Source of the DNA: Desulfobacterales bacterium
GTDB lineage: Bacteria > Desulfobacterota > Desulfobacteria > Desulfobacterales > UBA2245
Assembly (NCBI GenBank): GCA_040771865.1
Contig: JAXGZF010000010.1
Span: 62,001 to 126,000, forward strand
Length of the DNA stretch: 64,000 nt
Reading direction: 5' to 3'
A program made the position numbers and the translations under genes. The first letter of the stretch is position 1. Each line of letters begins with the position of its first letter. Shown here one piece after another: positions 13,901-40,996 of this stretch. A model generated the notes under the pieces. It was given only the letters and a program-made list of their open reading frames with translations, was not told the DNA's origin and did not search any database.

Positions 13901-14033
13901 CTGGCATTTTGGATGGCGATGGCCGGAAAGCGGCGCCGAGGAAAGCGCCAATATGCTGACTGTGTCCGCAGGCGATTCCAACACCCGAATTCCGGAAAGC
14001 AAGGCATTTATGTGCAATGTTTCGAAAATATAG
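10989..14033 (+). CDS. fdhA: Periplasmic Mo/W formate dehydrogenase alpha subunit, Cys-type
   Basis: Tat signal TRREFI; CCYCAVGC…LCAKG Fe-S motif; EHQARICHS with TGC at the position that is Sec in FdnG-type enzymes; AMGWTQH, RGESNVQ. Confidence 0.95.
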   Translation: MNVTRREFIQITGATAAGLAVSGIGFGLSPVKSHAQMLKTKYAKQTTTICCYCAVGCGAIVHTNKADGRAINVEGDPDHVINRGALCAKGASLFQLAENRNRLTEPMYRAPYSDRWQKVSWEWAIENIADRVKKTRDANFTTQNDKGQTVNRTTAIASVGSAAFDNEECFIYQSLMRALGLVYIEHQARICHSSTVPALAESFGRGAMTNHYIDLRNSDVLLAMGGNPAENHPISFKYITEAQLKGATLISVDPRFTKTSSKADIYAPMRSGTDIAFLGGMIKYILDNKLYDVEYVSNYTNACFIVGKGFSFKDGLFSGYDKAKRAYDKKQWAYEMDANGVPKMDRTLKDKRCVLSLLKKHYDRYTTKLVSKITGTPEADLVKVYKAYGATGAKGKAGTSMYAMGWTQHTVGVQNIRTMAMIQLLLGNIGCAGGGVNAMRGESNVQASTDWALLFNILPGYLKIPRASDDSLNTYLTKNTPKSNDPQSANWWQNYPKYTVSLLKSFFGDKAQKENGFGFNWLPKCDDGKDYSWLSLFDEMYKGSFKGFFAWGMNPACSGANSNKTRAALGKLDWMVNVNLFDNETGSFWRGPGMNPASIKTEVFMLPACVSYEKEGSITNSGRWMQWRYQGPDRLGNSKPDGDMMIELGLKLKELYARGGAFTEPILNLKWDYMTHHEFDPHKAAKEINGYFLKDVTIKDTTYKAGTLVPSFAMLQADGSTSSANWLYCGSYTEKGNMAARRGQEDAENKIGLYPNFSWCWPVNRRIIYNRASVDLKGNPRDEKRWVIKWNGEKWIGDVPDGPWPPLQNADGSPNPAGRHPFIMQQHGHAHIFGPGLVDGPFPEHYEPIECPVEKNLLGKQLNSPTAPVYTSDKDAVVSCDPRFPYVGSTYRVVEHWQTGLMTRPQPWLLELQPQVFVEMSEELAKLKGIKNGERVRVSSARGSVDCVAMVTKRFKPFKIAGNTVHEVGVPWHFGWRWPESGAEESANMLTVSAGDSNTRIPESKAFMCNVSKI

Positions 14034-16601: not shown

Positions 16602-17435
16602 TTATTTACGAAGCTCTCGCTCATAATGTCGCCAGCGAAAAGTGTTGCGCAGATAATCGATCGTTTTGAGTCCGCCGGGCGGAAGGTCCTTTTGCCGTTC
16701 GCAGACTTCCGCAAGGTCCGGAAATTCATCTATGTCGCTCCAAAGCGGGAGAACGTGAACATCGACGCCATTCTTTCGAAACACCCGCATGGTGGCCTCA
16801 AAAACTTCCGGTCCGCTCCACTTGATGCCGCAAAATACCGCCGGAAGAAAGCCGCCGGAGGAGAAGCCTATTAGGTAATACCCCCCGTCCCGGGCCGGTC
16901 CGAGGACTGCGCCGCAGGTTTTGAGCGCATCAAACGCCTCGTGGAGAAAAGCCGGGGGAAGATCCGGGCAATCGCTGCCGATAAGAACGGCCCGTGAGCT
17001 TTGAAGCAATACATTCTGAAACGCATCGAGCATCCTTTGTCCCAGATCGCCCCCTTTCTGCGGAACGCAGACGATGTCGCCTCCGATCCAGTTTTCGACC
17101 GCGCCCCGGGCTTCGGGCGGATGAAAGAATGCCAGCGCAGGATAACCGGCGTGCCGAACCGTTGCAAAAATGTCGGAGACGAAACAGCGGTAGAGGTCAA
17201 GGGCGGCCTTATCGCCGATGCTTTGCGCCAGTCTTGTCTTCACGGCGCCTCTGACGGGGTTTTTCACAAAAACGATCAACCGGTTTTCGGCAGGGATTTT
17301 GGAATCCTCCGCACCGCCATTTATTTCCCGCGGATCGCAAAATTCTTCCATAAACGATGTCTTCTTATTTCTTCCATCCCGCAGGTGCGCTAACATCGTC
17401 CGTTCGACACCGCATACGCACCCCTTCATGTTCAT
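16602..17435 (-). CDS. TIGR04282-like transferase (DUF2064/CofC-like)
   Basis: FVKNPVRGAVKTRL, QKGGDLGQRM, LIGSDCP, GPARDGGYYLIG, DID. True start uncertain, probably downstream (e.g. 17351). Confidence 0.85.
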   Translation of the reverse strand: MNMKGCVCGVERTMLAHLRDGRNKKTSFMEEFCDPREINGGAEDSKIPAENRLIVFVKNPVRGAVKTRLAQSIGDKAALDLYRCFVSDIFATVRHAGYPALAFFHPPEARGAVENWIGGDIVCVPQKGGDLGQRMLDAFQNVLLQSSRAVLIGSDCPDLPPAFLHEAFDALKTCGAVLGPARDGGYYLIGFSSGGFLPAVFCGIKWSGPEVFEATMRVFRKNGVDVHVLPLWSDIDEFPDLAEVCERQKDLPPGGLKTIDYLRNTFRWRHYERELRK

Positions 17436-22014: not shown

Positions 22015-23499
22015 TCATTCCGATGATCTTTCGATTGCCTTGTATAATGATTCCCTGATGTCTTTTGCCATGGTCAATGCAAAACCGAATGGAACCAGCA
22101 ACAGCAAGGATATGGCAAGCCAGGTCCCCCGCTGCGATGCAAAAAGAATCGGCAGCAGGCAGTAGAGGAACAGCAGGCCGTTGATGAAAATGTAAGGGAT
22201 GTTTTTCTGATGATACTGCAGGGCCGGCACCGGCATCCGGTCATCTTCCCGCATGCCGAATTTCGGCGTCCTCTCGAAAGCCCCGCCCGATCGAAACAGC
22301 CCCTTCAGCACGGAAAGGGAGATGCTGGGCGCCAGACCGATGGTAAGAGCCGGAAGCAGAAATACATAGCTCAGCTTTTTGGAGTTGCTTCGAATCGAAT
22401 AAAGCAGGAAGTAGCTCATGATCGCTCCGGTTGAAACCAGAAAAAGCGGCAGATCAATGCTGACGACCTGTTGCAGGCCGATGCCGACCCGCCAGTTGAT
22501 CGCCGGGTAGAGGGTCAGTATGGCGATCATGCCTAGGAGCCAGAAGATATTGGCCATCAAATGAACTGCGGCTTCAATCTTGACGGGCAGCGGCAAGCGT
22601 TCCTTCAAAAGTCGCGGCAGAATCTTCCGGGCCGTCTGTATGGAGCCTTTTGCCCAGCGCTGCTGCTGGGTGCGCAGTGCAGACAGGGTTACAGGAAGCT
22701 CGGATGGCACGTGGCACTCTTCGAGATAGACGAATCGCCATCCGGCCATTTGAGCCCGGTAACTCAGATCCAGGTCCTCGGTGACCGTGTCCGCCTGCCA
22801 GCCGCCGGCGGATTCGATGGCGCTTTTCCGCCAGACGCCGGCGGTGCCGTTGAAATTAAAGAACAGGCCCTGCTGAAAACGCACGCGATGCTCGATGCTG
22901 AAATGGGCGCCGAGCATGAGGGATTGAATGCCAGTGAACCAGGAGTGGCCGGCATTGCAGAAGCTCCAGCGGGCTTGGACCATGCCGACTTTCGGGTCCC
23001 TGAACCAGGGGGCGGTGGAATGCAGAAAATCAGAAGGAGGAATGAAGTCGGCGTCGAAAACGGCGATCAGTTCGCCCTGTGCCGTTTTGAGACCATTGGC
23101 GAGCGCTCCGGCCTTGTAGCCGACCCGGCAGGATCTTCGCACCACTCTCATAACAACCCCGCGCTGCCGCCACCAGGCAACACGTGCGTCCACCAGAGCG
23201 CAGGTATCATCGTCCGAATCGTCCAGCACCTGAATGTCGAGACGATCCGCAGGCCAGTCAAGACGGGCGGCTGCGTCCAGCAGGCGTTCCGCCACAAAGC
23301 GTTCATTGTAAAGCGGCAGTTGTACCGTAACCACAGGGAAGTGTTCGAATGCGGAAAAAGGGGCCGGCATGGCCGTTTCATCCGGCTTTTGTTTGTACAG
23401 GCAACAGATCAGCCAGAGCCGGTGTAATCCGTACAGGCAGACCAAAGACAGAGCGGCAAAATGGATCACCCCCAGAACCGGTATCAGTGCGGACAACAT
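22015..23499 (-). CDS. Membrane GT2 glycosyltransferase (cellulose-synthase-like)
   Basis: VTVQLPLYNE, LDDSDD, KAGAL, FDADF, TEDLDLS, QQQRW (D,D,D,QxxRW). Confidence 0.9.
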   Translation of the reverse strand: MLSALIPVLGVIHFAALSLVCLYGLHRLWLICCLYKQKPDETAMPAPFSAFEHFPVVTVQLPLYNERFVAERLLDAAARLDWPADRLDIQVLDDSDDDTCALVDARVAWWRQRGVVMRVVRRSCRVGYKAGALANGLKTAQGELIAVFDADFIPPSDFLHSTAPWFRDPKVGMVQARWSFCNAGHSWFTGIQSLMLGAHFSIEHRVRFQQGLFFNFNGTAGVWRKSAIESAGGWQADTVTEDLDLSYRAQMAGWRFVYLEECHVPSELPVTLSALRTQQQRWAKGSIQTARKILPRLLKERLPLPVKIEAAVHLMANIFWLLGMIAILTLYPAINWRVGIGLQQVVSIDLPLFLVSTGAIMSYFLLYSIRSNSKKLSYVFLLPALTIGLAPSISLSVLKGLFRSGGAFERTPKFGMREDDRMPVPALQYHQKNIPYIFINGLLFLYCLLPILFASQRGTWLAISLLLLVPFGFALTMAKDIRESLYKAIERSSE

Positions 23500-24536
23500 G
23501 CTGGCACTTCCGTTTCCTGCTTGTTTGCGGACACGCAGATGTCTGCCTCGGATTCAGCAAATGACGCGCCGCATCCTGAACCCTCTCCGGCGGTGCAACT
23601 GAAACAATGGTCGGCCATCAGAATGCTTCTGCCCGTGAAAATCGCCTCGTCGATCCGATCGATGGTCATAAGCGCGCCATCCATATCTTTCAGCGGCATG
23701 GCGGCAGCCAGGTTAAAGTCGCAGTTGTAGATCGTTCCGTCCCAGCCGACGCTGACCAGAGTCCGGCACATGATTCTCTCTGCGGCCTGAGGGTTGAATT
23801 TCTCCTCCAGATATTCGATGTAGCGTCGATAAGTTCCCCTGTTTTCCAGAAGATCACGGAATCGGCCGATGGGCGCATTGCTCATGCAGTGGAGCCGGTT
23901 GAACCTCACGCCAAAGCGCTGGAGCAGTTCCATGCGGTAGTGCTGTTCCAGTATATTCCGTGATCCGTAGATGGAGCGGTTGCCCGGGTTGTGGACGAGA
24001 TGAAGTTCCAGATCATCGCCATAGCCCTGCCGATTAAGGCGTCGCAACACCTCGATGCTTCGGGTGAAAACCCCTTTTCCTCTCTGTTTGTCCACATTTT
24101 CCTGTTCGTAGCATGGAAGCGACGCCATTACCACCAGGTTCTGCCGGCGATAAAAATCAGGCAGCCACTCCATTCCAAGCTCAAGGGCGACAACCAGATT
24201 GCTGCGGATGATGCGGCGTGTCGCGTATTCCGCCGTTGCTTCGATAAAATCGCGGAAGTGTGGATTCATTTCCGGACATCCGCCGGTTATATCCAGCGTC
24301 AGACCGGGATGCCCCGCCAGGAAGGCCGTAATCCGATCCATGACGGCCCTGTCCATGAGACGGCTGCCGTCCGGAGAGGCATGATGATGACAGTGGGCGC
24401 AGCTCAGGTTGCAGAGATCGCCCAGATTCACCTGGAGCGTTTCCAGTTTGCAGAATCTGCTAAAACGCGAATTGACCGCCTCGACTTTCTGTTTGAACAG
24501 TTCTCTCATGACTTGAGTTTCTCCGGTTCGTGTCAT
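23484..24536 (-). CDS. arsS: ArsS-family radical SAM protein (rSAM/Cys-rich, DUF3641 C-terminus)
   Basis: TLQVNLGDLCNLSCAHCH, DITGGCPEMNP, ASLPCY…VDKQRG, MCRTLVSVGWDG..YNCDFN, HCFSCTAGEGSGC. Confidence 0.85.
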   Translation of the reverse strand: MTRTGETQVMRELFKQKVEAVNSRFSRFCKLETLQVNLGDLCNLSCAHCHHHASPDGSRLMDRAVMDRITAFLAGHPGLTLDITGGCPEMNPHFRDFIEATAEYATRRIIRSNLVVALELGMEWLPDFYRRQNLVVMASLPCYEQENVDKQRGKGVFTRSIEVLRRLNRQGYGDDLELHLVHNPGNRSIYGSRNILEQHYRMELLQRFGVRFNRLHCMSNAPIGRFRDLLENRGTYRRYIEYLEEKFNPQAAERIMCRTLVSVGWDGTIYNCDFNLAAAMPLKDMDGALMTIDRIDEAIFTGRSILMADHCFSCTAGEGSGCGASFAESEADICVSANKQETEVPACCPH

Positions 24537-27212: not shown

Positions 27213-27977
27213 TTAAACCTCCTTGTTTTTTAACACCCTTATATGTTTTTTTTCAGGTTTTTCCTGGTGGTTTTTGCTTCGCAATCCGTGCATCAATTCG
27301 CGGCCGATAACCCACAGGATGGTGCTTCCAGCCTTGATGGTTCCCATGACTGTCCGACTGATCTTTGACTTGCCAGCAGTTCGCAGATGATATGGAACGT
27401 CGATCTCCCGTATTGTGAGATCCTGCTTGATTGCCCGGATCTGCATTTCAACCGTCCATCCGAAGGCCTGATCCGCCATATTCAACCGGCTCAGGGCAGG
27501 CCAGCTGATGACGCGCATGGGCCCCAGGTCGTAAAAACGGTGTTTCCAGATAAGATGTATCAGCCGGGTTGCCAGAATATGGCCGAAGCGTTGTTGAAAA
27601 CTTAAAGCCGCCGCTACGACCGGAAGGCGCCGACCCAGCGCCATGTCGGCCTCGCCTGCGGCAACCGGGGCGATCAGGTCGGACAGGCGCGACGGCTCAT
27701 CGCTTCCGTCGGCATCGACAAAGGCAACGATGTCGGGCGGATGACGCCGCAGGGCATTCAATCCCGCCAGGCAGGCTCTTCCGTAACCTGCCACCGGTTC
27801 ACGAATGACCAGCGCGCCGTGTGCGGCGGCAACTTTCCCCGTTCCATCCGTAGAGCCGTTGTCCACTACGATGACGCGTTCGATTTCCGCGGGCAGATTC
27901 GCCAGCACGCCCGGCAGGGATCCTTCTTCGTTGCGCGCCGGAATAATCAGCGCGATATCGGGATGAACGGTTTTCAA
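27213..27977 (-). CDS. GT2 glycosyltransferase (polyprenol-phosphate glycosyltransferase-like)
   Basis: IIPARNEE, VDNGSTD, GYGRAC, DADGSD, DLGPMR, GWTVEMQ, GKSKIS. TTG start overlaps the upstream stop. Confidence 0.87.
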   Translation of the reverse strand: MKTVHPDIALIIPARNEEGSLPGVLANLPAEIERVIVVDNGSTDGTGKVAAAHGALVIREPVAGYGRACLAGLNALRRHPPDIVAFVDADGSDEPSRLSDLIAPVAAGEADMALGRRLPVVAAALSFQQRFGHILATRLIHLIWKHRFYDLGPMRVISWPALSRLNMADQAFGWTVEMQIRAIKQDLTIREIDVPYHLRTAGKSKISRTVMGTIKAGSTILWVIGRELMHGLRSKNHQEKPEKKHIRVLKNKEV

Positions 27978-29803
27978 TGGGTCGCCTCGCTGGTCGATTT
28001 TCTTTTTTTCAACTGCCGGTAGGCAACCGGGATCAGAGAAACCAGCACGATCAGGGCGATGCCGATCAGGGCCGCAGGGGATATGTGCCCCCGGATCAAT
28101 CCCAGCAATGAGCTGGAAAAAACGATGAAGGCAATGCAGGCCGGCAGCATGCAAATGAAAGAGGCAGCCACGTAATGCGTAAACGGCACCTTGGTCAGTC
28201 CAAAGGCGTAGTTCAGCAGGTTGAACGGAAAGGCAGGAATCAGCCGGGTGAAGGCCACGACCTTCCAGCCGTGCTGGGCTACGTCGCGGTCAAGCTTTTC
28301 CCATCTTGAGCCGGTCAGTTTGGCGGCCACCCAGTCGCGGGCCACGTACCGCGCCGCCAGAAAAGCCAGGGAAGCGCCGATGGTTGAGCCGGTAATGGTA
28401 TAGACCACGCCCCAGAAAGGTCCGAAAACGATGCCGCCAACAATGGTGATCGGCAGTCCGGGCAGAAAAAGAACCGGTGCCAGGGAATAGATCAGCATGT
28501 AGATGGCCGGCGCCAGAGATCCGTAAGCACCGATCAGCGCACGCAACCTGTCCTGCTCCAGGTACTGAGTTGCGCCCGACAGGTGGACGCCGGCAACCAC
28601 CGCCGCCAGCATCGCCAGAAATATCAGCGGTTTCCAGGAACGTTTCTTTTGAGTCTCCTGGTCGTCGACAAAGGTGCGTTCACGCTTCACGGCGAATCCC
28701 TCCCGGCGTTTAAAGGCCCCTTTGAGGCGAAGCCGGTTCAGATAGGTGAAGGGGGCGCCGGCGCCTTTGACTTTTCCGGCCAGGGTTTGAGCCGGTTTGA
28801 AAAGAACATCGACGAGGTGATTGGTCGGCGTATGCCCGCCCAGGGTCTGAGTGCAGCCGGCGCAATAGGTGATGATCCTCTTGCCGTCCGCTTCTTTTTT
28901 GCGAAGTTCGCCCCATTCTGCGGCAAGTTCCGGGTTCAGCAGGTTGACTGCGCCTCCCTGGCCGCAACAGATGGTTTTTTTTCCTGAATGGGGCATTTCC
29001 TCCACCGTCAGTCCCTGGCGCTTCAGCAGGGTGCGTACGGCCTGATGCACCGGCTCGGCATGGCGGATGGCGCAGGGGTCGTGAACCGTCACCGTGCCGG
29101 ATGCTTTCTCAGGCTGCAGCCCGTTTTCCGCCAGGGCCTCCCACACGGTTTTCACTTTCAGCCCCTCGCCCAGAGAAGCGAACATCGACTGACAGTTGGG
29201 GCAGGCCACCAGTACCTTCCGAACCCCCTGCTGCACGAGCCAGCTGCGCATCTCCTCGAACATGACGCGAGCGTGCCGCTCCCGGCCAACGGTCCGGGAC
29301 GGCTTGGAACAGCAGTCAAAAACGATGCCGATGGCCGGATCAGCCTGCCGGAGCTGAGCGAAAATCTTCTCGACTCCTTCGGGACGGGTGCCCGACAGGG
29401 AACAGCCAGGAAAGAAGATCGTCGTGCATCCCTCAGGCAGGCGGTACAGGGTGAAACGGCGGGTCGTTCCTATTCGTTCGTAGTTCAACAGGGGTTTATG
29501 CTCTGAATGCTCGCCAAGACCCTGATCGACCGCTTCGCGCCGCATTTCCAGAAACATGCCGGCTACATCTATCTGCTTCGGGCAGTTTGCCGTGCAGAGA
29601 TTGCACAGGCTGCATTCAAAGGAGCGCGACAGGGATTCTGGTGAGGAAAGGTCGAAACCGGCGGCGATTGACTTCGGTGCGCCGTATTTCTTGAGAAAGA
29701 CGCACTCTCTCATGCATTTGCCGCAGTCGGTGCAGTCTGATGCGATTGCATTAATGAGCTCCCGCAGTTCCGGGCGGATCTTGTTTCCGCTGACAACGTT
29801 CAT
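27974..29803 (-). CDS. Fe-S oxidoreductase (ferredoxin + CCG domains) fused to a TVP38/DedA (VTT) membrane domain
   Basis: CTDCGKCMREC, CSLCNLCTANCP, FFPGC, DCC, ACPNC, HDPC, CCG, YCAGC, then TVP38 motifs FLPG and RLIPAFPFNLLNYAFG. Confidence 0.85.
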   Translation of the reverse strand: MNVVSGNKIRPELRELINAIASDCTDCGKCMRECVFLKKYGAPKSIAAGFDLSSPESLSRSFECSLCNLCTANCPKQIDVAGMFLEMRREAVDQGLGEHSEHKPLLNYERIGTTRRFTLYRLPEGCTTIFFPGCSLSGTRPEGVEKIFAQLRQADPAIGIVFDCCSKPSRTVGRERHARVMFEEMRSWLVQQGVRKVLVACPNCQSMFASLGEGLKVKTVWEALAENGLQPEKASGTVTVHDPCAIRHAEPVHQAVRTLLKRQGLTVEEMPHSGKKTICCGQGGAVNLLNPELAAEWGELRKKEADGKRIITYCAGCTQTLGGHTPTNHLVDVLFKPAQTLAGKVKGAGAPFTYLNRLRLKGAFKRREGFAVKRERTFVDDQETQKKRSWKPLIFLAMLAAVVAGVHLSGATQYLEQDRLRALIGAYGSLAPAIYMLIYSLAPVLFLPGLPITIVGGIVFGPFWGVVYTITGSTIGASLAFLAARYVARDWVAAKLTGSRWEKLDRDVAQHGWKVVAFTRLIPAFPFNLLNYAFGLTKVPFTHYVAASFICMLPACIAFIVFSSSLLGLIRGHISPAALIGIALIVLVSLIPVAYRQLKKRKSTSEATH

Positions 29804-29816
29804 GAATATGATCCTC

Positions 29817-30656
29817 TCAAGGCGTCTTGTAATAGACGGAAATCGAATAATTGGCGCCGGCCGCCGTATTCTGGCCATAGATGTCGGGCCGATAGCTTAA
29901 CTCAACGCCCCAGGACTGAGTGATCTTGTATCCCAGCGCGATATCGAGCTTGCCGAGGTCATAGTTGTAGGTTGACGTAGGATTGCCGCTGCTGTCTTTC
30001 TTTTCCCCGTCATCCATGCTGTAGATGCCGTCCAGCTTGACGCGGGCATAGACGCTGCTGGTGATGTCCGCACCGAACTCGATCAGGTAGCGAATCTCAT
30101 CGGAAGGCTCTTCCGCGCGAAAGCGGTAGCCTACCTCGAAATTGCAGTAACCGGGGATCAGCGGATAAAGCGAACGGCCGTAAAGCAGCCGGATTTCCGT
30201 ATCGAGCTGATCGTTGCCCAGGGGCAGGTCGTCGTCTTCGTCATACGGCCCGGGAATCTTGAAAAGCAGTTGCGTGGAAATGATGCCGATCCGGTCGCTG
30301 TCCAGCAATTTGTACCGCAACCCGAGGTCAATGTCGCCGATGCCGTACGCTTCCGAGGTAAACGCGTCGTTGTCGTTTTCCAGCCATTTGTAGGTCAGCG
30401 AGTTGATCAGGGTCAGGTTGTCGAGCAACCCGTACTCAAAGTAGTTGGAAACGTTGTAATCGGTGAATTCCCCGTTGTTGGGCGTGCTCTCGCGGTCTCC
30501 GTCCGGATCGAAAGTGTCGCTCGAATAATAATAATTGAAGGAAACCTGTTCGTAGAATCCGCCCTTCTTTTGAGTCCAGGCGCCGGAAAAGCAGGTCGCG
30601 GCGGATACCGTTACCAGCAGGATGACAACGATTGTTGACAGAACAAGATTTTTCAT
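29817..30656 (-). CDS. Putative outer-membrane beta-barrel protein
   Basis: Signal peptide (…CFSGAW); alternating aromatic/hydrophobic strands (YFEYGL, IDLGLRYKL, EVGYRFR, IALGYKI). Confidence 0.65.
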   Translation of the reverse strand: MKNLVLSTIVVILLVTVSAATCFSGAWTQKKGGFYEQVSFNYYYSSDTFDPDGDRESTPNNGEFTDYNVSNYFEYGLLDNLTLINSLTYKWLENDNDAFTSEAYGIGDIDLGLRYKLLDSDRIGIISTQLLFKIPGPYDEDDDLPLGNDQLDTEIRLLYGRSLYPLIPGYCNFEVGYRFRAEEPSDEIRYLIEFGADITSSVYARVKLDGIYSMDDGEKKDSSGNPTSTYNYDLGKLDIALGYKITQSWGVELSYRPDIYGQNTAAGANYSISVYYKTP

Positions 30657-30679
30657 AAGGGACCTTTCAATGTGGTAGC

Positions 30680-30710
30680 CAGGAGGGCGACCGTTATGGT
30701 TGCCCTCCTG
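30680..30710 (-). other. Intergenic stem-loop after the seleno-rhodanese gene
   Basis: Plus-strand CAGGAGGGCGACC-gttat-GGTTGCCCTCCTG inverted repeat; no U-tract on the coding strand. Confidence 0.5.
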
Positions 30711-30760
30711 TAGGTAGTAAACCTCATTATTTCTTGTAATGACGACAGGATAATCCTGAA

Positions 30761-32593
30761 TTATTCAGCGCCAAGAACTCTGGGTCGATCCGGATCCCAG
30801 GTCCACTCGTACCAGCTTCCATCGTAGTTTTTGATTTCAGGGTAGCCCATGGAGTACGCAAAAAAGAAGACCATACTGGTCCTCCATGCCGTCCCTCAGT
30901 AAAAGGCCAGCATTTTGTCAGAAGTAATTCCCCTATCCTGCCACATCTGTTCCACTTCGGGATAGCTCCGCAGCGTCTTGTCGGCGTCGAAATACCAGCC
31001 GCTATTCTCCGCGTACACATCGCCTGGAATGTGGCCTGCTGCCGTAAAGAAGTTGTAGTGGGTACCACCATCTTCGCCGGTATGTTCTTCCCAGCTGCGT
31101 ATGTCCACAACTACAGAATGCGGGTCAGACAACATTTCCTGGATTTCCGCGGTAGTAGCCAGATATTCCGGATGAACCGGAACGACGGCGCCGAAATCAG
31201 CAATGGGAATCGGTATGTTCGGCGTGGTTTCCACGCCGCCGCCGCTTGCCGACCACGCCTCGTATCCGCCGTTGAGAACGCGCACATCCTCGACACCGGC
31301 ATACATCAAAGCCCATGCAACCCTGAAATAGTTTGATGATGAGCCGTAGCCATACACAACCACCGTTGTGTCACGAGTGATCCCCAACTCTTCGATCAGT
31401 GTTTGAAGCTGGGGATCCGGCGGTAAATTTGCTTCAGCCGGACAAGTGTATACATCAGCGCCACAAGTTAGTTCACGGGTGCCGACGTGTATGGCACCTG
31501 GTATGTGGCCCGTGTTGTATTTAAGGTTAGGACTTGTGCTTTCCGTTTCCAAGATTACATATCTTTCACTCTCGAATGTCGGCGGCGTGCCGCCCGCAAT
31601 GAGTTCCTCAATCCATCCCGGATACACCAGCATGTGATAGTTGGCCATCTTGTCCATCGGATACGCGGTTTCATCCGCGGCGGCCCACTCGATAATGGAG
31701 GCGTCGTAATTGGCCGCGCTGGGATAGCCCATCAGCCTCAGGGCAAAATAGACAAATCCGCTGCGGATGCCGACCGTGCAGTTGGAGGCGACTTCCTTGT
31801 CGGCAGTGACGCCACGGGTTTCAAGCAGGGTCTTGAGATCCGCATAGGACAGAACGGTTTTATCGCTGTTAAAAAACCAGGCATAGGGAATCTGGACCGC
31901 TCCGGGAATATGACCGCCCCGCGCTTCTCCGTAGATCTGCCAGCCGTTGTATTCTTCATCCGTCCGGGCGTCGATGAGAACAAAATCGCTGCTCTGCTCC
32001 TTGGCCAGAATGGATTCCTTGGTAGCCCGCACGGCGTCCTTGACCGATGCTGTAAAGGTCGCCTTGATCAGGGCGTTGGTTCTTGTTTCTGTTGGTCTCC
32101 CGTCGGCGATCCATTTGTCCCAGCCGCCGTTGAGGATGTGGACGTCGTTGCATCCGAGGTATTCAAGCATCCAGAAGATGCGCCCCGCAGCGCCCCAGGC
32201 CGCCGTGGTGTTGTCGTAGACAACGACGGTCATATCCCGGGTCAAACCCGCCTCGCCGAGAAGAGCTTCCAGCTCTTCCACGGGTTTCAGGCCGGAACCC
32301 CAGGTCCAGAAGTCGTTGTGTATCAGGTTGATGGCGCCTGGTATGTGTCCCTGGTCGTATGCGGCTTTACCCCGCGCGTCGATAACCAGCAGATCGGGGT
32401 TGCTCAGGTTGTCCTCGACGGAACCTGCCCATACGAGGAGGTCGGCATTGGGATATTCCGTGGAAGATGGAACAAGAATCGATGCTGAGCTTGATGATCC
32501 TTTGTTGTCCACGGAACTGCCGCAGCCCGAAATTAAGCATGCGGCCGCCAACGCCAGAAACGACAGGATGATAAGTAGTCCGTTGCGTTTCAT
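30761..32593 (-). CDS. Four-domain rhodanese lipoprotein, selenoprotein (Sec566)
   Basis: Lipobox LISGC. The ORF track stops at TGA 30896-30898, but the frame continues FY-U-GTAWRTSMVFFFAYSMGYPEIKNYDGSWYEW…GAE* to TAA at 30761, matching paralog FYCGTAWRSS. SECIS-like hairpin present. Confidence 0.88.
30866..30884 (-). promoter_or_regulatory. SECIS-like hairpin
   Basis: GAGGACCA-GUA-UGGUCUUC, beginning after an 11-nt spacer from the UGA. Confidence 0.7.
31613..32462. repeat. Diverged third copy of the shared N-terminal double-rhodanese module
   Basis: Aligns with ~34931-35780 (offset 3318) with scattered substitutions. Confidence 0.8.
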
Positions 32594-32950
32594 TCGAATT
32601 TTTCCCTTTCACGCTTTTGAACGTTTATGTCGTACTGTTTTCGTGCCTGATTTTCATATATTTGATTTGTATTTTCTCTCCTTTCATGGGTTGGAATCTT
32701 CAAATGAACGGTTAGCGCGTCTGTTCCCGTAATGACGCACTGGCTTAAAGATAGCGGTATCTTCACAATTTTATAAATAAGTCAAATTGATAATAAGAAT
32801 ATAAAAATAATCAATTATTGAGATAAGCGATCAATTATGGTTTCTTTACAGGCGGGCTTAATAGCAATAATAATGGTCCTGCGGAAAAATACATTTTCTG
32901 AAGAATAGAGTGCGTTCCGGCGCAGAAATTAAAGCGCGTTGAGAATCGAT

Positions 32951-32992
32951 TTCAAACAAAAGGCCGCCTGAAAAGGCGGCCTTTTGTTTGAA
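32951..32992. terminator. Intrinsic (bidirectional-type) terminator after the 964-aa rhodanese
   Basis: TTCAAACAAAAGGCCGCCT-gaaa-AGGCGGCCTTTTGTTTGAA, perfect 19-bp inverted repeat with U-tracts. Confidence 0.85.
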
Positions 32993-33007: not shown

Positions 33008-35902
33008 TCAGGGCAGATCCGGATTCTCATCCAGGATGGGATTTTCGACCGGATAATCTCCGTTATAGGCGGATCCATTACCCATGCTCCATTCGAACCA
33101 GGAACTGTCGAAATTGCTGATTTCCGGATAACCGATCATGTATGCATAAAACCAGGCCAAACTGGAGCGCCAGGCCGTCCCGCAGTAAAAGCTCAGGTGC
33201 TTGTCGGTGGTGATGCCGTGAGAATTCCAGTAGATGTAAATCTCAGCGGATGATTTCAGAGTGCCGTCGTCGTTGACATAGTCTTCCATGGTCCACGGGC
33301 CTGAACCTGCCTTGCCCCAGACTGCGCCGGGAATGCGGCCGCTGGTGGGAATATAGCTGTACGGAGCTGTCGCACCGGTATATTCATCCCAGGAACGGAT
33401 GTCAACAATCAGTGCATCGGTTTCAACGCCGTTGACAACATCGCGCACATAGGGAATGTCCACCTTGTATTCGGGATGAATGGCCGTGATTCGGCCGGGA
33501 TCATCCGGGTCAAAGAATGCCGCCGGCGACCGGAGATTGGTGGTTGTTTCCAGTTCATATCCGGCGGATGTCCAGGCATTCTTGCCTCCGTCTAAAAAGC
33601 GGACGTCGCTGACGCCGGCGTACATAAGAGTCCAGAACAGACGTGCGGCGGCGGTTGCGTCATCGCCATAAACGACGACCGTGGCATCTTTGTTGATGCC
33701 CATGTAGGCAATGGCCGGAAGCAGATACTCGTCCGGATAGATATTCCACCAGTTCCGCGGCAGGGCATCATTCGGACCAAGCCCCTTGGCGGCGTCCTCT
33801 TCTTCCGTTGTGCTGCGATCCCAGCAGGCCGGTTCGCCCGCTTCCACGGGCCAGGCGTTGCGGGCGTTGAAACAGTCGTATTCGATCTCGTCGGTGTTTA
33901 CCCAGATTGCTCTCGGGATATGACCGTTGTAGTATGGAGCATCAGCCGGGCCCCAGCCGGTTTCGACGATCACATAAGGCTTGCCGCCATTGTTGTTATC
34001 CGTCATTTGCTTTAACCAGGCCGCGCTGACCAACTTGTCGGTATTGCCGGTCTCCCTTGGATTGTCGTAATAGGACCACTGGAACCAGCCTCCATCAAAG
34101 TTTGCGGCCTGCCATCCCATCAGATAGGCATAAAAAGTATACAGACCGGATCGCCAGCCCGTACCGCAATAGAAATACATGGTTTTATCCGGTGAAAACC
34201 CCGAAGCGATCCAGTTCTTTTCAACCTCCGTATAGGTTCGCAGCGATTGCGTATCGTCTCTGACCAGTTCAACCCAGTCCCCGATCCATCGGGCTGTAGG
34301 AATGCGGCCGTATTCATGGAAATAGTGATAGTAGGAATTTGATGATCCGACGAATTCCGCCCATTCCCGATCGTCCACGATGATTGCGTCGGTATTGACG
34401 CCGCCGATCACGTCATGCAGATCCTCCATGGTGGCGAGGAATTGAGCATTGCCTTCTCCGCCGCCAAAATTAGCGGCAGGCAGGGTGTGCGGCGTGGTTT
34501 CGATGTCTCCGCCATATGCAACCCAGGCGGCATAGCTTCCATTGAGGATGCGCACATCGTTCACTCCGGCAAGAAGCAATGCCCAGGCCGTGCGTCCGGC
34601 GGTCATCATGGAAATATCGTCATCCGCGTAAACCACGACGGTCTTGTCTTTGGAAATGCCCAGTTCGCCGAAAAACTGCTGTAACTCGGCAATGGGTTTG
34701 ACATTGCCTTCCTCGGGAAATTCATATCCGTCTCCGTACTCTGAATTCGGGCCGTTTTCGATACTGTATGTGTCCATGAAAATCGAACCCGGAATGTGAC
34801 CGTTTTCATAATGGCTTCCAACATAATCCGTCCGGTTTTCACTGTATCGGGGCTCATACGAAGTATAAAGAATGACAAACCCGTTCCCCGGATAGGTCGG
34901 CGGGTTATTCCCCTTGATAAGCTCGTCCACCCATCCCGGATACACCAGAGCCTGATAATTGGCCATCTTGTCCATCGGATACGTGGTTTCATCCGCGGCG
35001 GCCCACTCGATAATGGATGCGTCATAGTTGGCTGCGATGGGGTAGCCCATCAGCCTCAGGGTAAAGTAGACAAATCCGCTTCGAATGCCGACCGTGCAGT
35101 TGGAGGCGACATCCTTGTCGGCAGTGACGCCGCGCGCTTCAAGCAGGGTCTTGAGATCCGCATAGGCCAGAACGGTCTTGTCTGCGTTAAAGAACCGGGC
35201 GTAGGGAATCTGGACCGCGCCGGGAATATGGCCGCCCCGGGCTTCTCCATAAAGCTGCCAGCCGTTGTATTCTTCATCCGTCCGGGCGTCGATGAGAACG
35301 AAATTGTTGTTTTGCATTTTGGCCAGAATGGATTCCTTGGTGGCCCTCACGGAGTTGTTGACCGCCGCCTTGAAGGTTGCCTGGGTCAGGGCGTTGGTTT
35401 TTGTTTCCGTAGGTCTTCCGTCAGCGACCCATTTGTCCCACCCTCCGTTGAGAATGTGGACATCCGTGCACCCGAGGTATTCGAGCATCCAGAAGATGCG
35501 CCCCGCAGCACCCCAGGCCGCCGTGGTGTTGTCGTAGACGACGACGGTCATATCCCGGGTCAAACCCGCCTCGCCGAGAAGAACCTCCAGCTCTTCCACG
35601 GGTTTCAGGCCGGATCCCCAGGTCCAGAAGTCGTTGTGTATCAGGCTGATGGCCCCCGGTATGTGTCCCTGGTCGTATGCGGCTTTGCCCCGCGCATCGA
35701 TGACCAGCAGATCGGAGTTGTTCAGGTTGTCCTCGACGGAATCCGCGGATACGAGAAGTCCGGCATTGGGGTATTCCGTTGACGCGGGATCAAGAGTCAC
35801 CACCGTTTCCTTGCTGTCCGAGGAGCTGCTGCAACCGGGAAGCAGAAATATTGCCGCCAAGGCCAAAAGGCCCAGAACTATAAAAACACTGCTGCGTTTC
35901 AT
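33008..35902 (-). CDS. Six-domain rhodanese lipoprotein (YnjE-like active sites)
   Basis: Lipobox LLPGC; three GHIP-containing tandem pairs; loops CTVGIRS, CGTGWRS, CGTAWRS. Confidence 0.9.
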   Translation of the reverse strand: MKRSSVFIVLGLLALAAIFLLPGCSSSSDSKETVVTLDPASTEYPNAGLLVSADSVEDNLNNSDLLVIDARGKAAYDQGHIPGAISLIHNDFWTWGSGLKPVEELEVLLGEAGLTRDMTVVVYDNTTAAWGAAGRIFWMLEYLGCTDVHILNGGWDKWVADGRPTETKTNALTQATFKAAVNNSVRATKESILAKMQNNNFVLIDARTDEEYNGWQLYGEARGGHIPGAVQIPYARFFNADKTVLAYADLKTLLEARGVTADKDVASNCTVGIRSGFVYFTLRLMGYPIAANYDASIIEWAAADETTYPMDKMANYQALVYPGWVDELIKGNNPPTYPGNGFVILYTSYEPRYSENRTDYVGSHYENGHIPGSIFMDTYSIENGPNSEYGDGYEFPEEGNVKPIAELQQFFGELGISKDKTVVVYADDDISMMTAGRTAWALLLAGVNDVRILNGSYAAWVAYGGDIETTPHTLPAANFGGGEGNAQFLATMEDLHDVIGGVNTDAIIVDDREWAEFVGSSNSYYHYFHEYGRIPTARWIGDWVELVRDDTQSLRTYTEVEKNWIASGFSPDKTMYFYCGTGWRSGLYTFYAYLMGWQAANFDGGWFQWSYYDNPRETGNTDKLVSAAWLKQMTDNNNGGKPYVIVETGWGPADAPYYNGHIPRAIWVNTDEIEYDCFNARNAWPVEAGEPACWDRSTTEEEDAAKGLGPNDALPRNWWNIYPDEYLLPAIAYMGINKDATVVVYGDDATAAARLFWTLMYAGVSDVRFLDGGKNAWTSAGYELETTTNLRSPAAFFDPDDPGRITAIHPEYKVDIPYVRDVVNGVETDALIVDIRSWDEYTGATAPYSYIPTSGRIPGAVWGKAGSGPWTMEDYVNDDGTLKSSAEIYIYWNSHGITTDKHLSFYCGTAWRSSLAWFYAYMIGYPEISNFDSSWFEWSMGNGSAYNGDYPVENPILDENPDLP
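34962..35902. repeat. Direct repeat copy 1 (941 bp, 5' module of rhodanese gene)
   Basis: Near-identical to 37070-38010 (offset 2108). Confidence 0.92.
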
Positions 35903-36126: not shown

Positions 36127-38010
36127 TTATTCTGGCACTCCGGTCTCCCTGTCATTATCATCATTAGTTGACCACAGGAACCATCCGCCTTCATAGTTTG
36201 CTGCAGGCCATCCCATCATATATGCATAAAAGGTATACATGGCCGACCTCGCACCTCCGCCGCAATAAAAATACATTTTTTTGCTAGGCGTAAATCCTTT
36301 TTGCTTCCAATCATACTCTGCATCTGCAAAGGGTATAAAAGACTGATGATCCTCACTTACAATGTCAACCCAGTCGCCTATCCATTTTGCTGTAGGGATA
36401 CGGCCGTATTCTTCAAACCACCAATAGTATGAATTAGACGCGCCGGTGTATTCATCCCACTCACGGTCATCGACGATAATTGAACCAGTGTCGATGCCGT
36501 CAATAACATCCTGAAGATCTTCAGTGGTAGCTATATACTCAGTGTTGCCCGAAGATACGCCAAAACTTGCCACGGGGGACCATGAAGTTTCTCCGGTTTC
36601 GACTGCAAATCCCGCCGCCGTCCATGCTTGATAGCCCCCGTTCAGAATACGCACGTCGTCGACCCCTGCATATAATAATGCCCAGGCAATGCGCCCTGCT
36701 GTCATCATGGAAATATCATCATTCGCGTAAACGATGACTGTTTTATCCTTGGTGATTCCCATTCCGGCAAAAAATGTCTGCAAAGCAGAAAGTTCCTTGA
36801 CATATGATTCGCTCGGACTCTGATAACCATCTCCAAATTCTGAATTCGGACCGGTCTCGACTGAATAAGTATCCAGGAATATAGCGCCGGGAATGTGCCC
36901 GACTGAGGAGAAGGGGGTTCCTGCCCCGGTAGTAGATATCTCATTTGTCTCCCATCGGGGCCACCATGATGTAAAGACAATCACGTATCCGTTGCCGGGA
37001 TATGTTGCAGGATTGTTGCCTTCGATCAGATCATTAACCCATTGCGGAGATACCAGGGCCTCAAAATGCGCCATCTTGTCCATCGGATACGCGGTTTCAT
37101 CCGCGGCGGCCCACTCGATAATGGATGCGTCATAGTTGGCTGCGATGGGGTAGCCCATCAGCCTCAGGGTAAAGTAGACAAATCCGCTTCGAATGCCGAC
37201 CGTGCAGTTGGAGGCGACATCCTTGTCGGCAGTGACGCCGCGCGCTTCAAGCAGGGTCTTGAGATCCGCATAGGCCAGAACGGTCTTGTCTGCGTTAAAG
37301 AACCGGGCGTAGGGAATCTGGACCGCGCCGGGAATATGGCCGCCCCGGGCTTCTCCATAAAGCTGCCAGCCGTTGTATTCTTCATCCGTCCGGGCGTCGA
37401 TGAGAACGAAATTGTTGTTTTGCATTTTGGCCAGAATGGATTCCTTGGTGGCCCTCACGGAGTTGTTGACCGCCGCCTTGAAGGTTGCCTGGGTCAGGGC
37501 GTTGGTTTTTGTTTCCGTAGGTCTTCCGTCAGCGACCCATTTGTCCCACCCTCCGTTGAGAATGTGGACATCCGTGCACCCGAGGTATTCGAGCATCCAG
37601 AAGATGCGCCCCGCAGCACCCCAGGCCGCCGTGGTGTTGTCGTAGACGACGACGGTCATATCCCGGGTCAAACCCGCCTCGCCGAGAAGAGCTTCCAGCT
37701 CTTCCACGGGTTTCAGGCCGGAGCCCCAGGTCCAGAAGTCGTTGTGTATCAGGTTGATGGCGCCTGGTATGTGTCCCTCGTCGTATGCGGCTTTGCCCCG
37801 CGCATCGATGACCAGCAGATCGGAGTTGTTCAGGTTGTCCTCGACGGAATCCGCGGATACGAGAAGTCCGGCATTGGGGTATTCCGTTGACGCGGGATCA
37901 AGAGTCACCACCGTTTCCTTGCTGTCCGAGGAGCTGCTGCAACCGGGAAGCATAAATATTGCCGCCAAGGCCAAAAGACCCAGAACTATAAAAACACTGC
38001 TGCGTTTCAT
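36127..38010 (-). CDS. Four-domain rhodanese lipoprotein
   Basis: Lipobox MLPGC; loops CTVGIRS and CGGGARS; YEGGW. Confidence 0.9.
   Translation of the reverse strand: MKRSSVFIVLGLLALAAIFMLPGCSSSSDSKETVVTLDPASTEYPNAGLLVSADSVEDNLNNSDLLVIDARGKAAYDEGHIPGAINLIHNDFWTWGSGLKPVEELEALLGEAGLTRDMTVVVYDNTTAAWGAAGRIFWMLEYLGCTDVHILNGGWDKWVADGRPTETKTNALTQATFKAAVNNSVRATKESILAKMQNNNFVLIDARTDEEYNGWQLYGEARGGHIPGAVQIPYARFFNADKTVLAYADLKTLLEARGVTADKDVASNCTVGIRSGFVYFTLRLMGYPIAANYDASIIEWAAADETAYPMDKMAHFEALVSPQWVNDLIEGNNPATYPGNGYVIVFTSWWPRWETNEISTTGAGTPFSSVGHIPGAIFLDTYSVETGPNSEFGDGYQSPSESYVKELSALQTFFAGMGITKDKTVIVYANDDISMMTAGRIAWALLYAGVDDVRILNGGYQAWTAAGFAVETGETSWSPVASFGVSSGNTEYIATTEDLQDVIDGIDTGSIIVDDREWDEYTGASNSYYWWFEEYGRIPTAKWIGDWVDIVSEDHQSFIPFADAEYDWKQKGFTPSKKMYFYCGGGARSAMYTFYAYMMGWPAANYEGGWFLWSTNDDNDRETGVPE
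37070..38010. repeat. Direct repeat copy 2
   Basis: Near-identical to 34962-35902. Confidence 0.92.
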
Positions 38011-40381: not shown

Positions 40382-40996
40382 ATGTCGAATACAGTGGATA
40401 CAAGAGGACTTGCCTGCCCCCAACCGGTCATCATGACGAAAATGGCGCTTGATACGGATGAGCATATCATCGTGATCGTCGATAATCCCGCGGCCAGAGA
40501 GAATGTATGCCGTCTGGCGAAAAGCAAGGGATGTGAGCTCAAGGTTGAAGAAAAGCCGGATGGAATCTATATCTCTATTTTTTCAGACGACTCGAAAGTC
40601 AAAGAAGCTGAGAGCCCGGCCGGCATAGACGACCCGGTCGGAGATGCGGATCGGAAAACAGGCCCTCTGGTCGTCACCATTCAGGAGAACCGAATGGGAA
40701 GAGGCAATGATGAGCTGGGCTACGTTTTGATCAAAAGCTTTCTCCACACCCTGGGCGAGGTCCGTCCTTCTCCCGACGTCATGATTTTCTTCAACACGGG
40801 CGTCAAGCTCTGCGTAAAAGGATCGGATGTGGTTGATGATTTGAAGCATCTTCAGGAAACAGGGATCAAAATACTCGTGTGCGGAACCTGCCTGAATTTT
40901 TTCGGACTGATGAACGACCTGGAGGCAGGGATGATTTCCAATATGTACGATATCAGCGAGACCCTGCTTTCGGCCGGAAAAATCGTGACCGTCTGA
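40382..40996 (+). CDS. yedF: Sulfurtransferase-like selenium metabolism protein YedF (TusA + DsrE-like domains)
   Basis: DTRGLACPQPVI, MGRGNDELG, FNTGVKL, ILVCGTCL, ISNMYDI. Confidence 0.85.
   Translation: MSNTVDTRGLACPQPVIMTKMALDTDEHIIVIVDNPAARENVCRLAKSKGCELKVEEKPDGIYISIFSDDSKVKEAESPAGIDDPVGDADRKTGPLVVTIQENRMGRGNDELGYVLIKSFLHTLGEVRPSPDVMIFFNTGVKLCVKGSDVVDDLKHLQETGIKILVCGTCLNFFGLMNDLEAGMISNMYDISETLLSAGKIVTV

Follow-up and report, generated by a model that had tools for sequence, protein, structure and literature searches.

A probable selenocysteine codon at the catalytic site of the last domain of a four-domain rhodanese lipoprotein from a Desulfobacterales bacterium

In a 64,000-nucleotide stretch of the genome of a Desulfobacterales bacterium (GenBank assembly GCA_040771865.1, contig JAXGZF010000010.1, positions 62,001 to 126,000; the whole stretch is termed the window, and its own numbering is used throughout), a minus-strand gene for a multi-domain rhodanese lipoprotein is interrupted by an in-frame TGA at 30896-30898. 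This TGA is very probably a selenocysteine (Sec, U) codon at the catalytic site of the fourth rhodanese domain. The assignment draws on the alignment of the codon with catalytic cysteines, TGA at the same column in six further genes, a hairpin downstream of the codon that co-varies among these genes, selection on the codons that follow, and a full Sec-decoding machinery in the genome. The coordinates of the gene, its elements and its neighbours are collected in Table 1.

An in-frame TGA at the active-site position of the fourth rhodanese domain

The open reading frame (ORF) starts with the ATG at 32593 and appears to end after 565 codons, with the C-terminus SDKMLAFY, at the single in-frame TGA of the gene, codon 566. 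If this TGA is read as U, 44 further codons (GTAWRTSMVFFFAYSMGYPEIKNYDGSWYEWTWDPDRPRVLGAE) follow before a TAA at 30761-30763, giving a protein of 610 residues with U at position 566. An earlier note, made from the letters of this DNA, had described exactly this arrangement, an apparent end at KMLAFY-TGA with the frame running on, and had placed the UGA at the column of an active-site Cys; both points stand. BLASTP of the read-through protein against the 964-residue product of the neighbouring gene (33008..35902) gave 61% identity over 629 columns, and U falls on the Cys of FYCGTAWRSS. The segment FYUGTAWRTS pairs with FYCGTAWRSS in the last domain and with FYCGTGWRSG in the fourth domain of the neighbour, and in the second alignment FYUGTAWRTSMVFFFAYSMGYPEIKNYDGSWYEW lies opposite FYCGTAWRSSLAWFYAYMIGYPEISNFDSSWFEW. 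The note had also expected that annotation would truncate the product, as is the case: public protein databases carry it as 565 residues, and two NCBI orthologue records, named 'rhodanese-like domain-containing protein', likewise end at ...FY.

The read-through protein matches Pfam PF00581 (E 7.1e-66) in four stretches, corresponding to four rhodanese domains. Since the loop position of domains 1 and 3 is occupied by residues other than Cys (VVVYDNTTAAWG and VVVYGYGSSSNY), whereas domain 2 has Cys272 and domain 4 the predicted Sec566, the sequence reads as two tandem-rhodanese modules, one Cys-based (C272) and one Sec-based (U566). The N-terminus, MKRNGLLIILSFLALAAACLISG followed by CGSS, fits by eye the lipobox pattern [LVI][ASTVI][GAS]C, with LISG-C at residues 20-24, and a lipobox-like N-terminus is present in all four of the Sec-type orthologues taken from genomes. 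The cell-envelope location proposed in the earlier note is thus also the location predicted here.

Search against solved structures revealed that the C-terminal 281 residues are most similar to the EanB group (6h98, 6ktv and others; E 5e-51, query residues 2-279 on residues 151-438 of the 441-residue chain), followed by YnjE (3ipo, 2wlr; E 8e-42). Because the alignment with these solved rhodaneses runs end to end, the 44 residues after the UGA are predicted to form the last part of the rhodanese fold, and the 565-residue form would be without the active-site loop of domain 4. In the EanB alignment, U566 lies on the Cys of AFYCGTGWRGS, R571 on the following Arg, and the Tyr of THYNFF on the Tyr of YNYI. 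For EanB, roles are described for Cys412 as the persulfide carrier, Arg417 and Tyr353 (PMC10903977); with the numbering matched through the construct offset, U566, R571 and the Tyr of the window protein would be their equivalents. No NCBIfam family reaches its cut-off on the 610-residue protein, and no (seleno)protein model does so either; the best match is the 3-mercaptopyruvate sulfurtransferase (3-MST) SseA (NF008557, 165.5 bits versus a cut-off of 250), followed by ExtH (NF040901, 90.9 versus 200), rhodanese_LYCAU (63.2 versus 115) and TsoB (28.9 versus 805).

Table 1. Positions of the gene, its predicted elements and the neighbouring features in the window
Feature	Position	Strand	Basis
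Full coding sequence, predicted 610-residue seleno-rhodanese prolipoprotein with four rhodanese domains	30764..32593	-	Translation with TGA as U, Pfam
TGA, predicted Sec566 at the active-site position of domain 4, loop UGTAWR	30896..30898	-	Alignment to the catalytic Cys of EanB, AFYCGTGWRGS
44 codons after the UGA, predicted to complete the fourth rhodanese domain	30764..30895	-	EanB/YnjE alignment, dN/dS
bSECIS-like hairpin, nt 14-34 counted from the U of UGA; 9-bp stem, loop G23 U24 A25 (30874-30876)	30865..30885	-	
Predicted signal peptide and lipobox LISG-C; Cys24 (32522-32524) is the predicted lipidated residue	32522..32593	-	Read from translation
Cys272, predicted active-site Cys of domain 2, loop CTVGIRSG	31778..31780	-	Loop conserved as CT[AV]GIRSG in homologues
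Cys-only paralogue, 964 residues, six rhodanese domains, lipobox	33008..35902	-	Pfam, BLASTP
Second Cys-only paralogue, 627-residue ORF, four rhodanese domains	36127..38010	-	
Strong terminator-like hairpin, 19 pairs, after the 964-residue paralogue	32951..32992	-	Terminator scan
Inverted repeat CAGGAGGGC-13 nt-GCCCTCCTG between the stop of the Sec gene and the next gene	30680..30710	-	No U-run after it
279-residue protein, signal-peptide-like start, immediately downstream of the Sec gene	29817..30656	-	
Membrane protein, 4Fe-4S/CCG (heterodisulfide-reductase-like) fused to VTT/DedA	27977..29806	-	Pfam

Homologues with TGA at the same column

A search with residues 330-610 against about 5.8 billion proteins gave 1778 matches at E <= 0.001 among 3572 candidates. 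Five of the best 120 of these matches cover only 83-84% of the query, that is, they stop at the U column: the window's own 565-residue call and P0051, P0057, P0084 and P0087. Their C-termini read ...TFY in both P0057 and P0084, ...AFY in P0087 and ...GFV in P0051, a protein of 567 residues that probably stops at the same column. P0084, P0087 and P0057 correspond, respectively, to L034, L040 and L065 among the nucleotide loci described next.

Scanning one genome per species yielded 52 related loci, and in four of them (L033, L034, L038 and L040) TGA occupies the column of the catalytic residue in the last domain; the remaining loci covering the column have Cys. L034, L038 and L040 come from one metagenome-assembled genome (MAG), and L033 from another. 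A scan of metagenomes confirmed three loci from 84 pattern matches, and two of the three, L065 and L066 on one contig, have the TGA. Together with the window, seven genes in four assemblies therefore carry TGA at this column, the six others standing at 42-62% protein identity over the last domain. The comparison of homologues for Cys or UGA at this column, which the earlier note had suggested, thus gives a split family, with seven TGA genes against Cys at 84 of the 89 active sites compared in the folding control below.

A co-varying bSECIS-like hairpin downstream of the TGA

A hairpin of nine pairs, two of them G-U, with a GUA loop lies shortly after the UGA in the window gene, and a hairpin occurs at the same position in all seven TGA genes, with invariant G23 and U24 in the loop. 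The earlier note had drawn this stem with eight pairs after an 11-nt spacer, leaving out the outer G-U pair; with that pair included, the stem starts 10-11 nt after the UGA. It contains the Arg codon AGG, and it is absent, as had been claimed, from the Cys paralogue, where the Arg codon is CGC and the minimum free energy (MFE) is -4.0 kcal/mol versus -11.3 kcal/mol. The published model of the bacterial selenocysteine insertion sequence (bSECIS) sets a loop of 3-9 nt, an upper stem of 4-16 bp, a loop start of G[G|U], a UGA-to-loop distance of 16-37 nt and an MFE <= -7.5 kcal/mol (Fig. 2 legend, PMC13188914). The window hairpin lies within every one of these limits (loop 3 nt, stem 9 bp, GU start, 19 nt, -11.3 kcal/mol), and five of the seven TGA genes reach the energy limit in a 29-nt fold window. 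Compared to the SECIS elements of E. coli fdhF and fdnG, which, as described in PMC8659212, start about 11 nt after the UGA and hold G23/U24 in the apical loop, the window element shares these two features but has a 3-nt loop and another stem sequence.

The hairpins fall into two subtypes. Subtype A (window, L034 and L065, and L040 with a shifted register) has the form GGAGGACCA-GUN-UGGUCUUCU and encodes W-R-T/S-S-M/L-V/T-F-F, and subtype B (L033, L038 and L066) has the form (A)CGGUCCA-GUUU-UGGACUG(U) and encodes I-R-S-S-F-G-L-F. Between them, compensatory changes occur at stem levels 4 (A-U/U-A), 7 (A-U/C-G) and 8 (G-C/A-U). The stem of L066 has one U-C mismatch, and that of L038 is shorter. 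The U-run after the hairpin encodes the conserved residues FFF/FFY, and subtype-B hairpins are followed by only UUUU-GG. Genes of subtypes A and B were also observed together, on the L065/L066 contig and in the MAG that holds L034 and L040, so that more than one Sec paralogue can coexist.

Two controls were applied to the hairpin. In the first, nt 12-40 after each rhodanese active-site codon of the window cluster and of loci L013-L064 were folded, giving 89 sites (5 TGA and 84 Cys). The five TGA sites rank 1, 2, 4, 5 and 10 of 89 by folding energy, all with G23-U24 in the loop, and most of the 84 Cys-type sites have no comparable hairpin; the Cys-type site in domain 2 of L037 forms a GU-loop hairpin of -5.7 kcal/mol. 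In the second, the 14 codons after the UGA were recoded synonymously 1000 times each with uniform and with usage-weighted codon choice (Table 2). Selection on the hairpin beyond the needs of the peptide is apparent in five of the seven genes; in L040 it is weak, and in L066 none is detectable.

Table 2. Number of synonymous recodings per 1000 with a fold no less stable than that of the natural sequence
Gene	Uniform	Usage-weighted
Window	4	9
L034	0	13
L065	3	4
L033	0	16
L038	15	27
L040	68	74
L066	257	342

Distribution of the TGA form

Among close relatives, three of 41 genomes, the window's own included, gave a match at E <= 1e-20; the other matching genomes are without the TGA form, and the same-genus genome has no match at this threshold. 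In an even sample of the phylum, six of 400 other genomes match at E <= 1e-28, with TGA forms only in G278, the MAG of L034 and L040, which holds three Sec-type genes. A tree of 52 last-type catalytic domains was built by a quick search with support from Shimodaira-Hasegawa-like approximate likelihood-ratio tests (SH-aLRT) only, and it carries neither a root nor a direction. Subtype B falls in one starred clade (99), and the window groups with L034 and L065 (81), with a Cys form on a long branch, L052, as next neighbour (94); the position of L040 is unresolved. The Sec label requires three changes on this tree (starred branches alone would allow one), and none of 500 label shuffles needs as few as three. 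The Sec forms cluster, a pattern that fits one or a few switches between Cys and Sec within one subgroup.

The Sec machinery and the genetic code of the host

The host genome, 2.98 Mb in 13 contigs and 98.3% complete, is probably metagenome-assembled. It contains selA (526.7 bits), a SelB-specific winged-helix domain (69.1 bits) in a 733-residue frame, a tRNA-SeC with anticodon tca on contig C8, and selD (371.8 bits). The selD gene has itself one in-frame TGA, with the motif ...SGAGU ASK... in the N-terminal glycine-rich loop, the usual site of Sec or Cys in SelD; the gene lies on the same contig about 11 kb upstream of the window (G000:C10:49846-50772). All four of selA, selB, selC and selD are hence accounted for, and the Sec decoding by the host that the earlier note had implied is borne out, with SelD being of the Sec type. 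The further suggestion of that note, that Sec decoding supports an fdh leader model, gains nothing directly, as the window's FdnG-type enzyme has Cys at the canonical position. This formate dehydrogenase alpha subunit, encoded at 10989-14033 (+), matches TIGR01553 with 1481 bits and shows Cys rather than Sec in QARICHSSTV. The stops of the 22 Pfam-supported window genes are TGA in 12, TAA in eight and TAG in two; since TGA is the commonest ordinary stop, the code is not reassigned, and an in-frame TGA needs local recoding.

The downstream frame and alternative explanations

In each of the seven genes, 43-51 sense codons follow the UGA before a stop that coincides with the homologous C-terminus. 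For the first 40 of these codons, the Nei-Gojobori method gives a nonsynonymous to synonymous divergence (dN/dS) of 0.27/1.06 between the window and L034, 0.24/1.24 between the window and L065, 0.04/0.14 between L034 and L065, and 0.22/0.81 between L033 and L038. The frame after the UGA is under purifying selection, with dN/dS of about 0.2-0.3.

These data bear on the simplest alternative, that the TGA is a true stop, so that the main or only product is the 565-residue protein with one working module and the hairpin plus U-run acts as an intrinsic terminator or attenuator. The gene callers and the NCBI annotation end the protein at the TGA, and GGAGGACCAGTATGGTCTTCT followed by TTTTTGCGTA, with nine pairs, is among the hits of the terminator scan; moreover, Sec insertion is generally inefficient, so that some truncated product is expected anyway. 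However, a true stop leaves unexplained why the 44 downstream codons remain free of stops and evolve under purifying selection in each of the seven genes, and why their residues complete the rhodanese fold to the very ends of EanB and YnjE. The U-run is accounted for by the conserved phenylalanines that it encodes and is reduced to UUUU-GG after the subtype-B hairpins, and a cut domain 4 would be left without its active-site loop. We therefore regard a true stop as improbable.

A second alternative, that a recent nonsense mutation of a Cys codon (TGC or TGT) to TGA turned the gene into a pseudogene with a disabled last domain, would take a single base change, and the two intact adjoining Cys paralogues could compensate for the loss. 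It is strongly disfavoured, because TGA stands at the same column in six other genes, each with a co-varying hairpin, the downstream frame is intact and conserved, and the genome has the full Sec machinery.

Finally, the TGA might stem from a sequencing or assembly error, as the 13-contig assembly is probably metagenome-derived and the six public runs that contain the stretch or part of it have a low depth of 4.6-12.4. However, contigs of two of these runs, X3 and X4, which derive from further samples of the study to which the source sample probably belongs, cover at least 30600-31233 with the TGA unchanged; these are assembled contigs, not raw reads. They differ only by a T>G at 30671 and an insertion of 2 nt after 30717, neither of which lies in the gene, and thus retain the TGA as independent assemblies, which speaks against the sequencing error considered in the earlier note. 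Orthologues in other assemblies carry the TGA too, so that an error is hardly credible and the least probable of the three alternatives. Altogether, contigs from three other runs carry this T>G and this 2-nt insertion, which represent population variation in the spacer between the Sec gene and the next gene, beside the inverted repeat at 30680-30710.

Several observations weigh against the reading of the TGA as a Sec codon. The seven TGA genes are not independent, as they stem from only four assemblies and include paralogues. The hairpins of L040 (-6.1 kcal/mol) and L066 (-4.8 kcal/mol) do not reach -7.5 kcal/mol in the 29-nt fold window, and the recoding counts of these two genes in Table 2 are the least favourable. 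The window element is without the bulged U17 of the E. coli elements and is followed by six U, the terminator scan also listing it as terminator-like (30865-30885, -), and one Cys-type site, in L013, folds to -11.2 kcal/mol with a different geometry. A plain fold of 76 nt is unremarkable (z -0.98, with 37 of 200 shuffles at least as stable), and its MFE structure differs from the hairpin of the earlier note; the case for the hairpin therefore rests on comparison. An Rfam scan of 30600-31100 found no SECIS family, only two chance-level matches (E 0.25 and 9). As for the sequencing runs, X3 and X4 belong to the same study as the probable source sample, run X5 of another study does not span 30865-31024 and hence not the TGA, and there is no RNA run among the public runs containing the stretch.

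Relation to known seleno-rhodaneses and other rhodaneses

Seleno-rhodaneses are an already catalogued type of selenoprotein since 2005 and not a new class. A 'Rhodanese-related sulfurtransferase, COG2897' appears with three sequences as a new selenoprotein family in Table 1 of the Sargasso Sea study (Zhang, Fomenko & Gladyshev 2005, PMC1088965), and a 'Sulfurtransferase COG2897' with three Sec and four Cys members is listed from deltaproteobacterial symbionts of Olavius (Zhang & Gladyshev 2007, PMC1976440, Table 1). A 2026 review presents five rhodanese selenoprotein forms, with catalogued accessions including WP_010941598.1, MBM9537886.1 and MCY3690685.1 (PMC13188914). Like these COG2897 proteins, the window protein is a tandem rhodanese of the SseA/3-MST type with predicted Sec for the catalytic Cys and a bSECIS-like hairpin just downstream, and the broad lineage of the symbionts is also that of the relatives identified in this analysis. 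Six of the seven TGA genes fit the motif UxxG given for forms 2 and 4, whereas the window gene itself has UGTA. By comparison with the descriptions of the catalogued members, the window protein differs in having four domains, a lipobox and a second, Cys-based module; it is this predicted combination of four domains, a lipoprotein signal and one module each of the Cys and the Sec type that sets the window gene apart.

Among solved structures, the C-terminal module most resembles EanB, the anaerobic ergothioneine synthase of Chlorobium limicola, with an alignment over 278 residues. Its catalytic Cys/Arg/Tyr have Sec/Arg/Tyr as putative equivalents in the window protein, a likeness of the active site that does not imply the same reaction. 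EanB is cytoplasmic and has Cys and a single catalytic module, whereas the window protein has a lipoprotein signal and two modules. No methyltransferase family was found among the 29 window ORFs scanned, and EanA was not searched for in the genome. The second-best solved relative, YnjE of Escherichia coli, is likewise a multi-domain rhodanese with a CGTGWR-type loop, but it has Cys and three domains and is not a lipoprotein array; YnjE is presumably exported.

ExtH, encoded in the extHIJKL cluster of Geobacter sulfurreducens, resembles the window protein as a rhodanese-like cell-envelope lipoprotein of the same phylum that is encoded beside an outer-membrane protein and tied to selenite and tellurite reduction (PMC6148476, PMC5877670). 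They differ in that the window protein stays below the ExtH family cut-off, as given above, and that ExtH is not described as a selenoprotein in these sources, where the Sec protein of the cluster is the cytochrome ExtKL. No cytochrome c family was found among the 29 window ORFs scanned.

Gene neighbourhood

The Sec gene is the third of three co-oriented genes for multi-rhodanese lipoproteins. A 350-nt AT-rich spacer (32600-32950) separates it from the gene upstream and, because a strong terminator-like hairpin follows that upstream paralogue, the Sec gene probably has its own promoter and transcript starting from this region. The inverted repeat downstream of the gene was not flagged by the terminator scan. 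The next genes on the same strand encode, in order, the 279-residue protein, the CCG-VTT membrane protein, a GT2 glycosyltransferase, a rhodanese-YdjY lipoprotein, a two-domain rhodanese, an ArsS-type radical S-adenosylmethionine (SAM) enzyme and further GT2 and B12-radical-SAM proteins, with a TIGR04282 glycosyltransferase nearby. The 279-residue protein has no Pfam family and only weak NCBIfam hints (AcfA-family outer-membrane protein, E 0.008); tentatively, it is possibly an outer-membrane beta-barrel.

The CCG-VTT protein shares 55% identity over 595 residues with its equivalent in G278 (L076 15441-17291). It was further observed to hold two 4Fe-4S clusters plus CCG domains, with 'diclust_near_Sec' (NF045663) as the best NCBIfam match, below cut-off. 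In G278, one Sec gene is followed by a 967-residue Cys paralogue and the CCG-VTT protein, and a two-domain rhodanese precedes it. Sec-type genes thus accompany Cys-type paralogues and the CCG-VTT protein in two genomes, too few for a rule.

Several other genes of the region are worth recording. YedF is encoded on the other side of the array, at 40382-40996 (+), about 8 kb from the Sec gene (TIGR03527, 215 bits versus a cut-off of 110), and with YedF and the Sec-type selD the region looks enriched in selenium-handling genes. The segment 16602-28154, mostly on the minus strand, is an arsenosugar-biosynthesis-type cluster in which genes for rhodanese lipoproteins are interspersed. Its members include an ArsS-family radical SAM (seleno)protein (23484-24536; TIGR04167, 378 bits versus 300), the TIGR04282 glycosyltransferase (16602-17435; 190 bits versus 134), two GT2 glycosyltransferases and two B12-binding radical SAM enzymes; as a guess, its product might be a thio-, seleno- or arseno-sugar lipid. 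In G278, a molybdopterin oxidoreductase with a twin-arginine (Tat) signal is encoded directly upstream of the L040 Sec gene (L077 6236-8416). Its best matches are formate dehydrogenase alpha and PhsA-like models, all below cut-off, and its pairing with a Sec-rhodanese recalls a polysulfide or thiosulfate reductase with a sulfur carrier. This PhsA-like molybdoenzyme was considered as a functional clue and set aside, being below every family cut-off and absent from the window cluster.

Proposed mechanism and significance

Our computations bear on the codon and how it is conserved, on the hairpin with its covariation, on the Sec machinery and on selection downstream; SelB binding, selenium insertion, export and lipidation, the substrate and the partners we infer. 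We propose that SelB carrying Sec-tRNA(Sec) most likely binds the hairpin that starts 10-11 nt after the UGA, upon which Sec would be inserted at position 566 and translation would go on for the 44 remaining codons. The resulting 610-residue prolipoprotein would then be exported and lipid-anchored at Cys24. Each of its two modules would consist of an inactive domain followed by a catalytic one, with Cys272 (CTVGIR) in the first and Sec566 (UGTAWR) in the second. On the model of rhodaneses, YnjE and EanB, Sec566 may use its selenolate to accept sulfane sulfur or selenium, with polysulfide, thiosulfate or a partner protein as the donor. Held on Sec566 as a Se-S(-) or Se-Se(-) adduct, the sulfur or selenium may then be passed on in the cell envelope. 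The adjacent Cys-type rhodanese lipoproteins are likely partners, as is the conserved Fe-S/CCG-VTT membrane protein. Under selenium shortage, translation would end at the UGA and yield the 565-residue protein, in which only the first module is intact.

A more speculative and rather unlikely extension is that the Sec- and Cys-type multi-rhodanese lipoproteins and the CCG-VTT protein constitute an undescribed envelope relay for sulfane sulfur or selenium with a selenolate as the carrier. Such a role would fit the neighbourhood, given the 279-residue putative outer-membrane protein, the Sec-type selD, YedF and the ArsS-type radical SAM/glycosyltransferase cluster. Within such a relay, the Sec and Cys paralogues may be selenium-dependent isoforms, comparable to the Sec/Cys pairs of methanogens. 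As a bolder addition, the SECIS hairpin with its six U may double as a terminator; if true, this would tie transcription of the downstream genes to successful Sec decoding.

With the TGA read as a Sec codon, the annotation of the window protein and of at least three database orthologues, all listed as truncated at the catalytic residue, would be corrected, and a predicted exported, lipid-anchored, four-domain form would be added to the Sec-rhodaneses, a group known so far only from prediction. The organism is documented as Sec-decoding, with a SelD of the Sec type, and the surroundings of the gene are rich in genes for the handling of selenium and sulfur. Having a Cys-active and a Sec-active module of the same fold in one protein, the window protein would provide a natural case for what selenium buys a sulfur-transfer enzyme.

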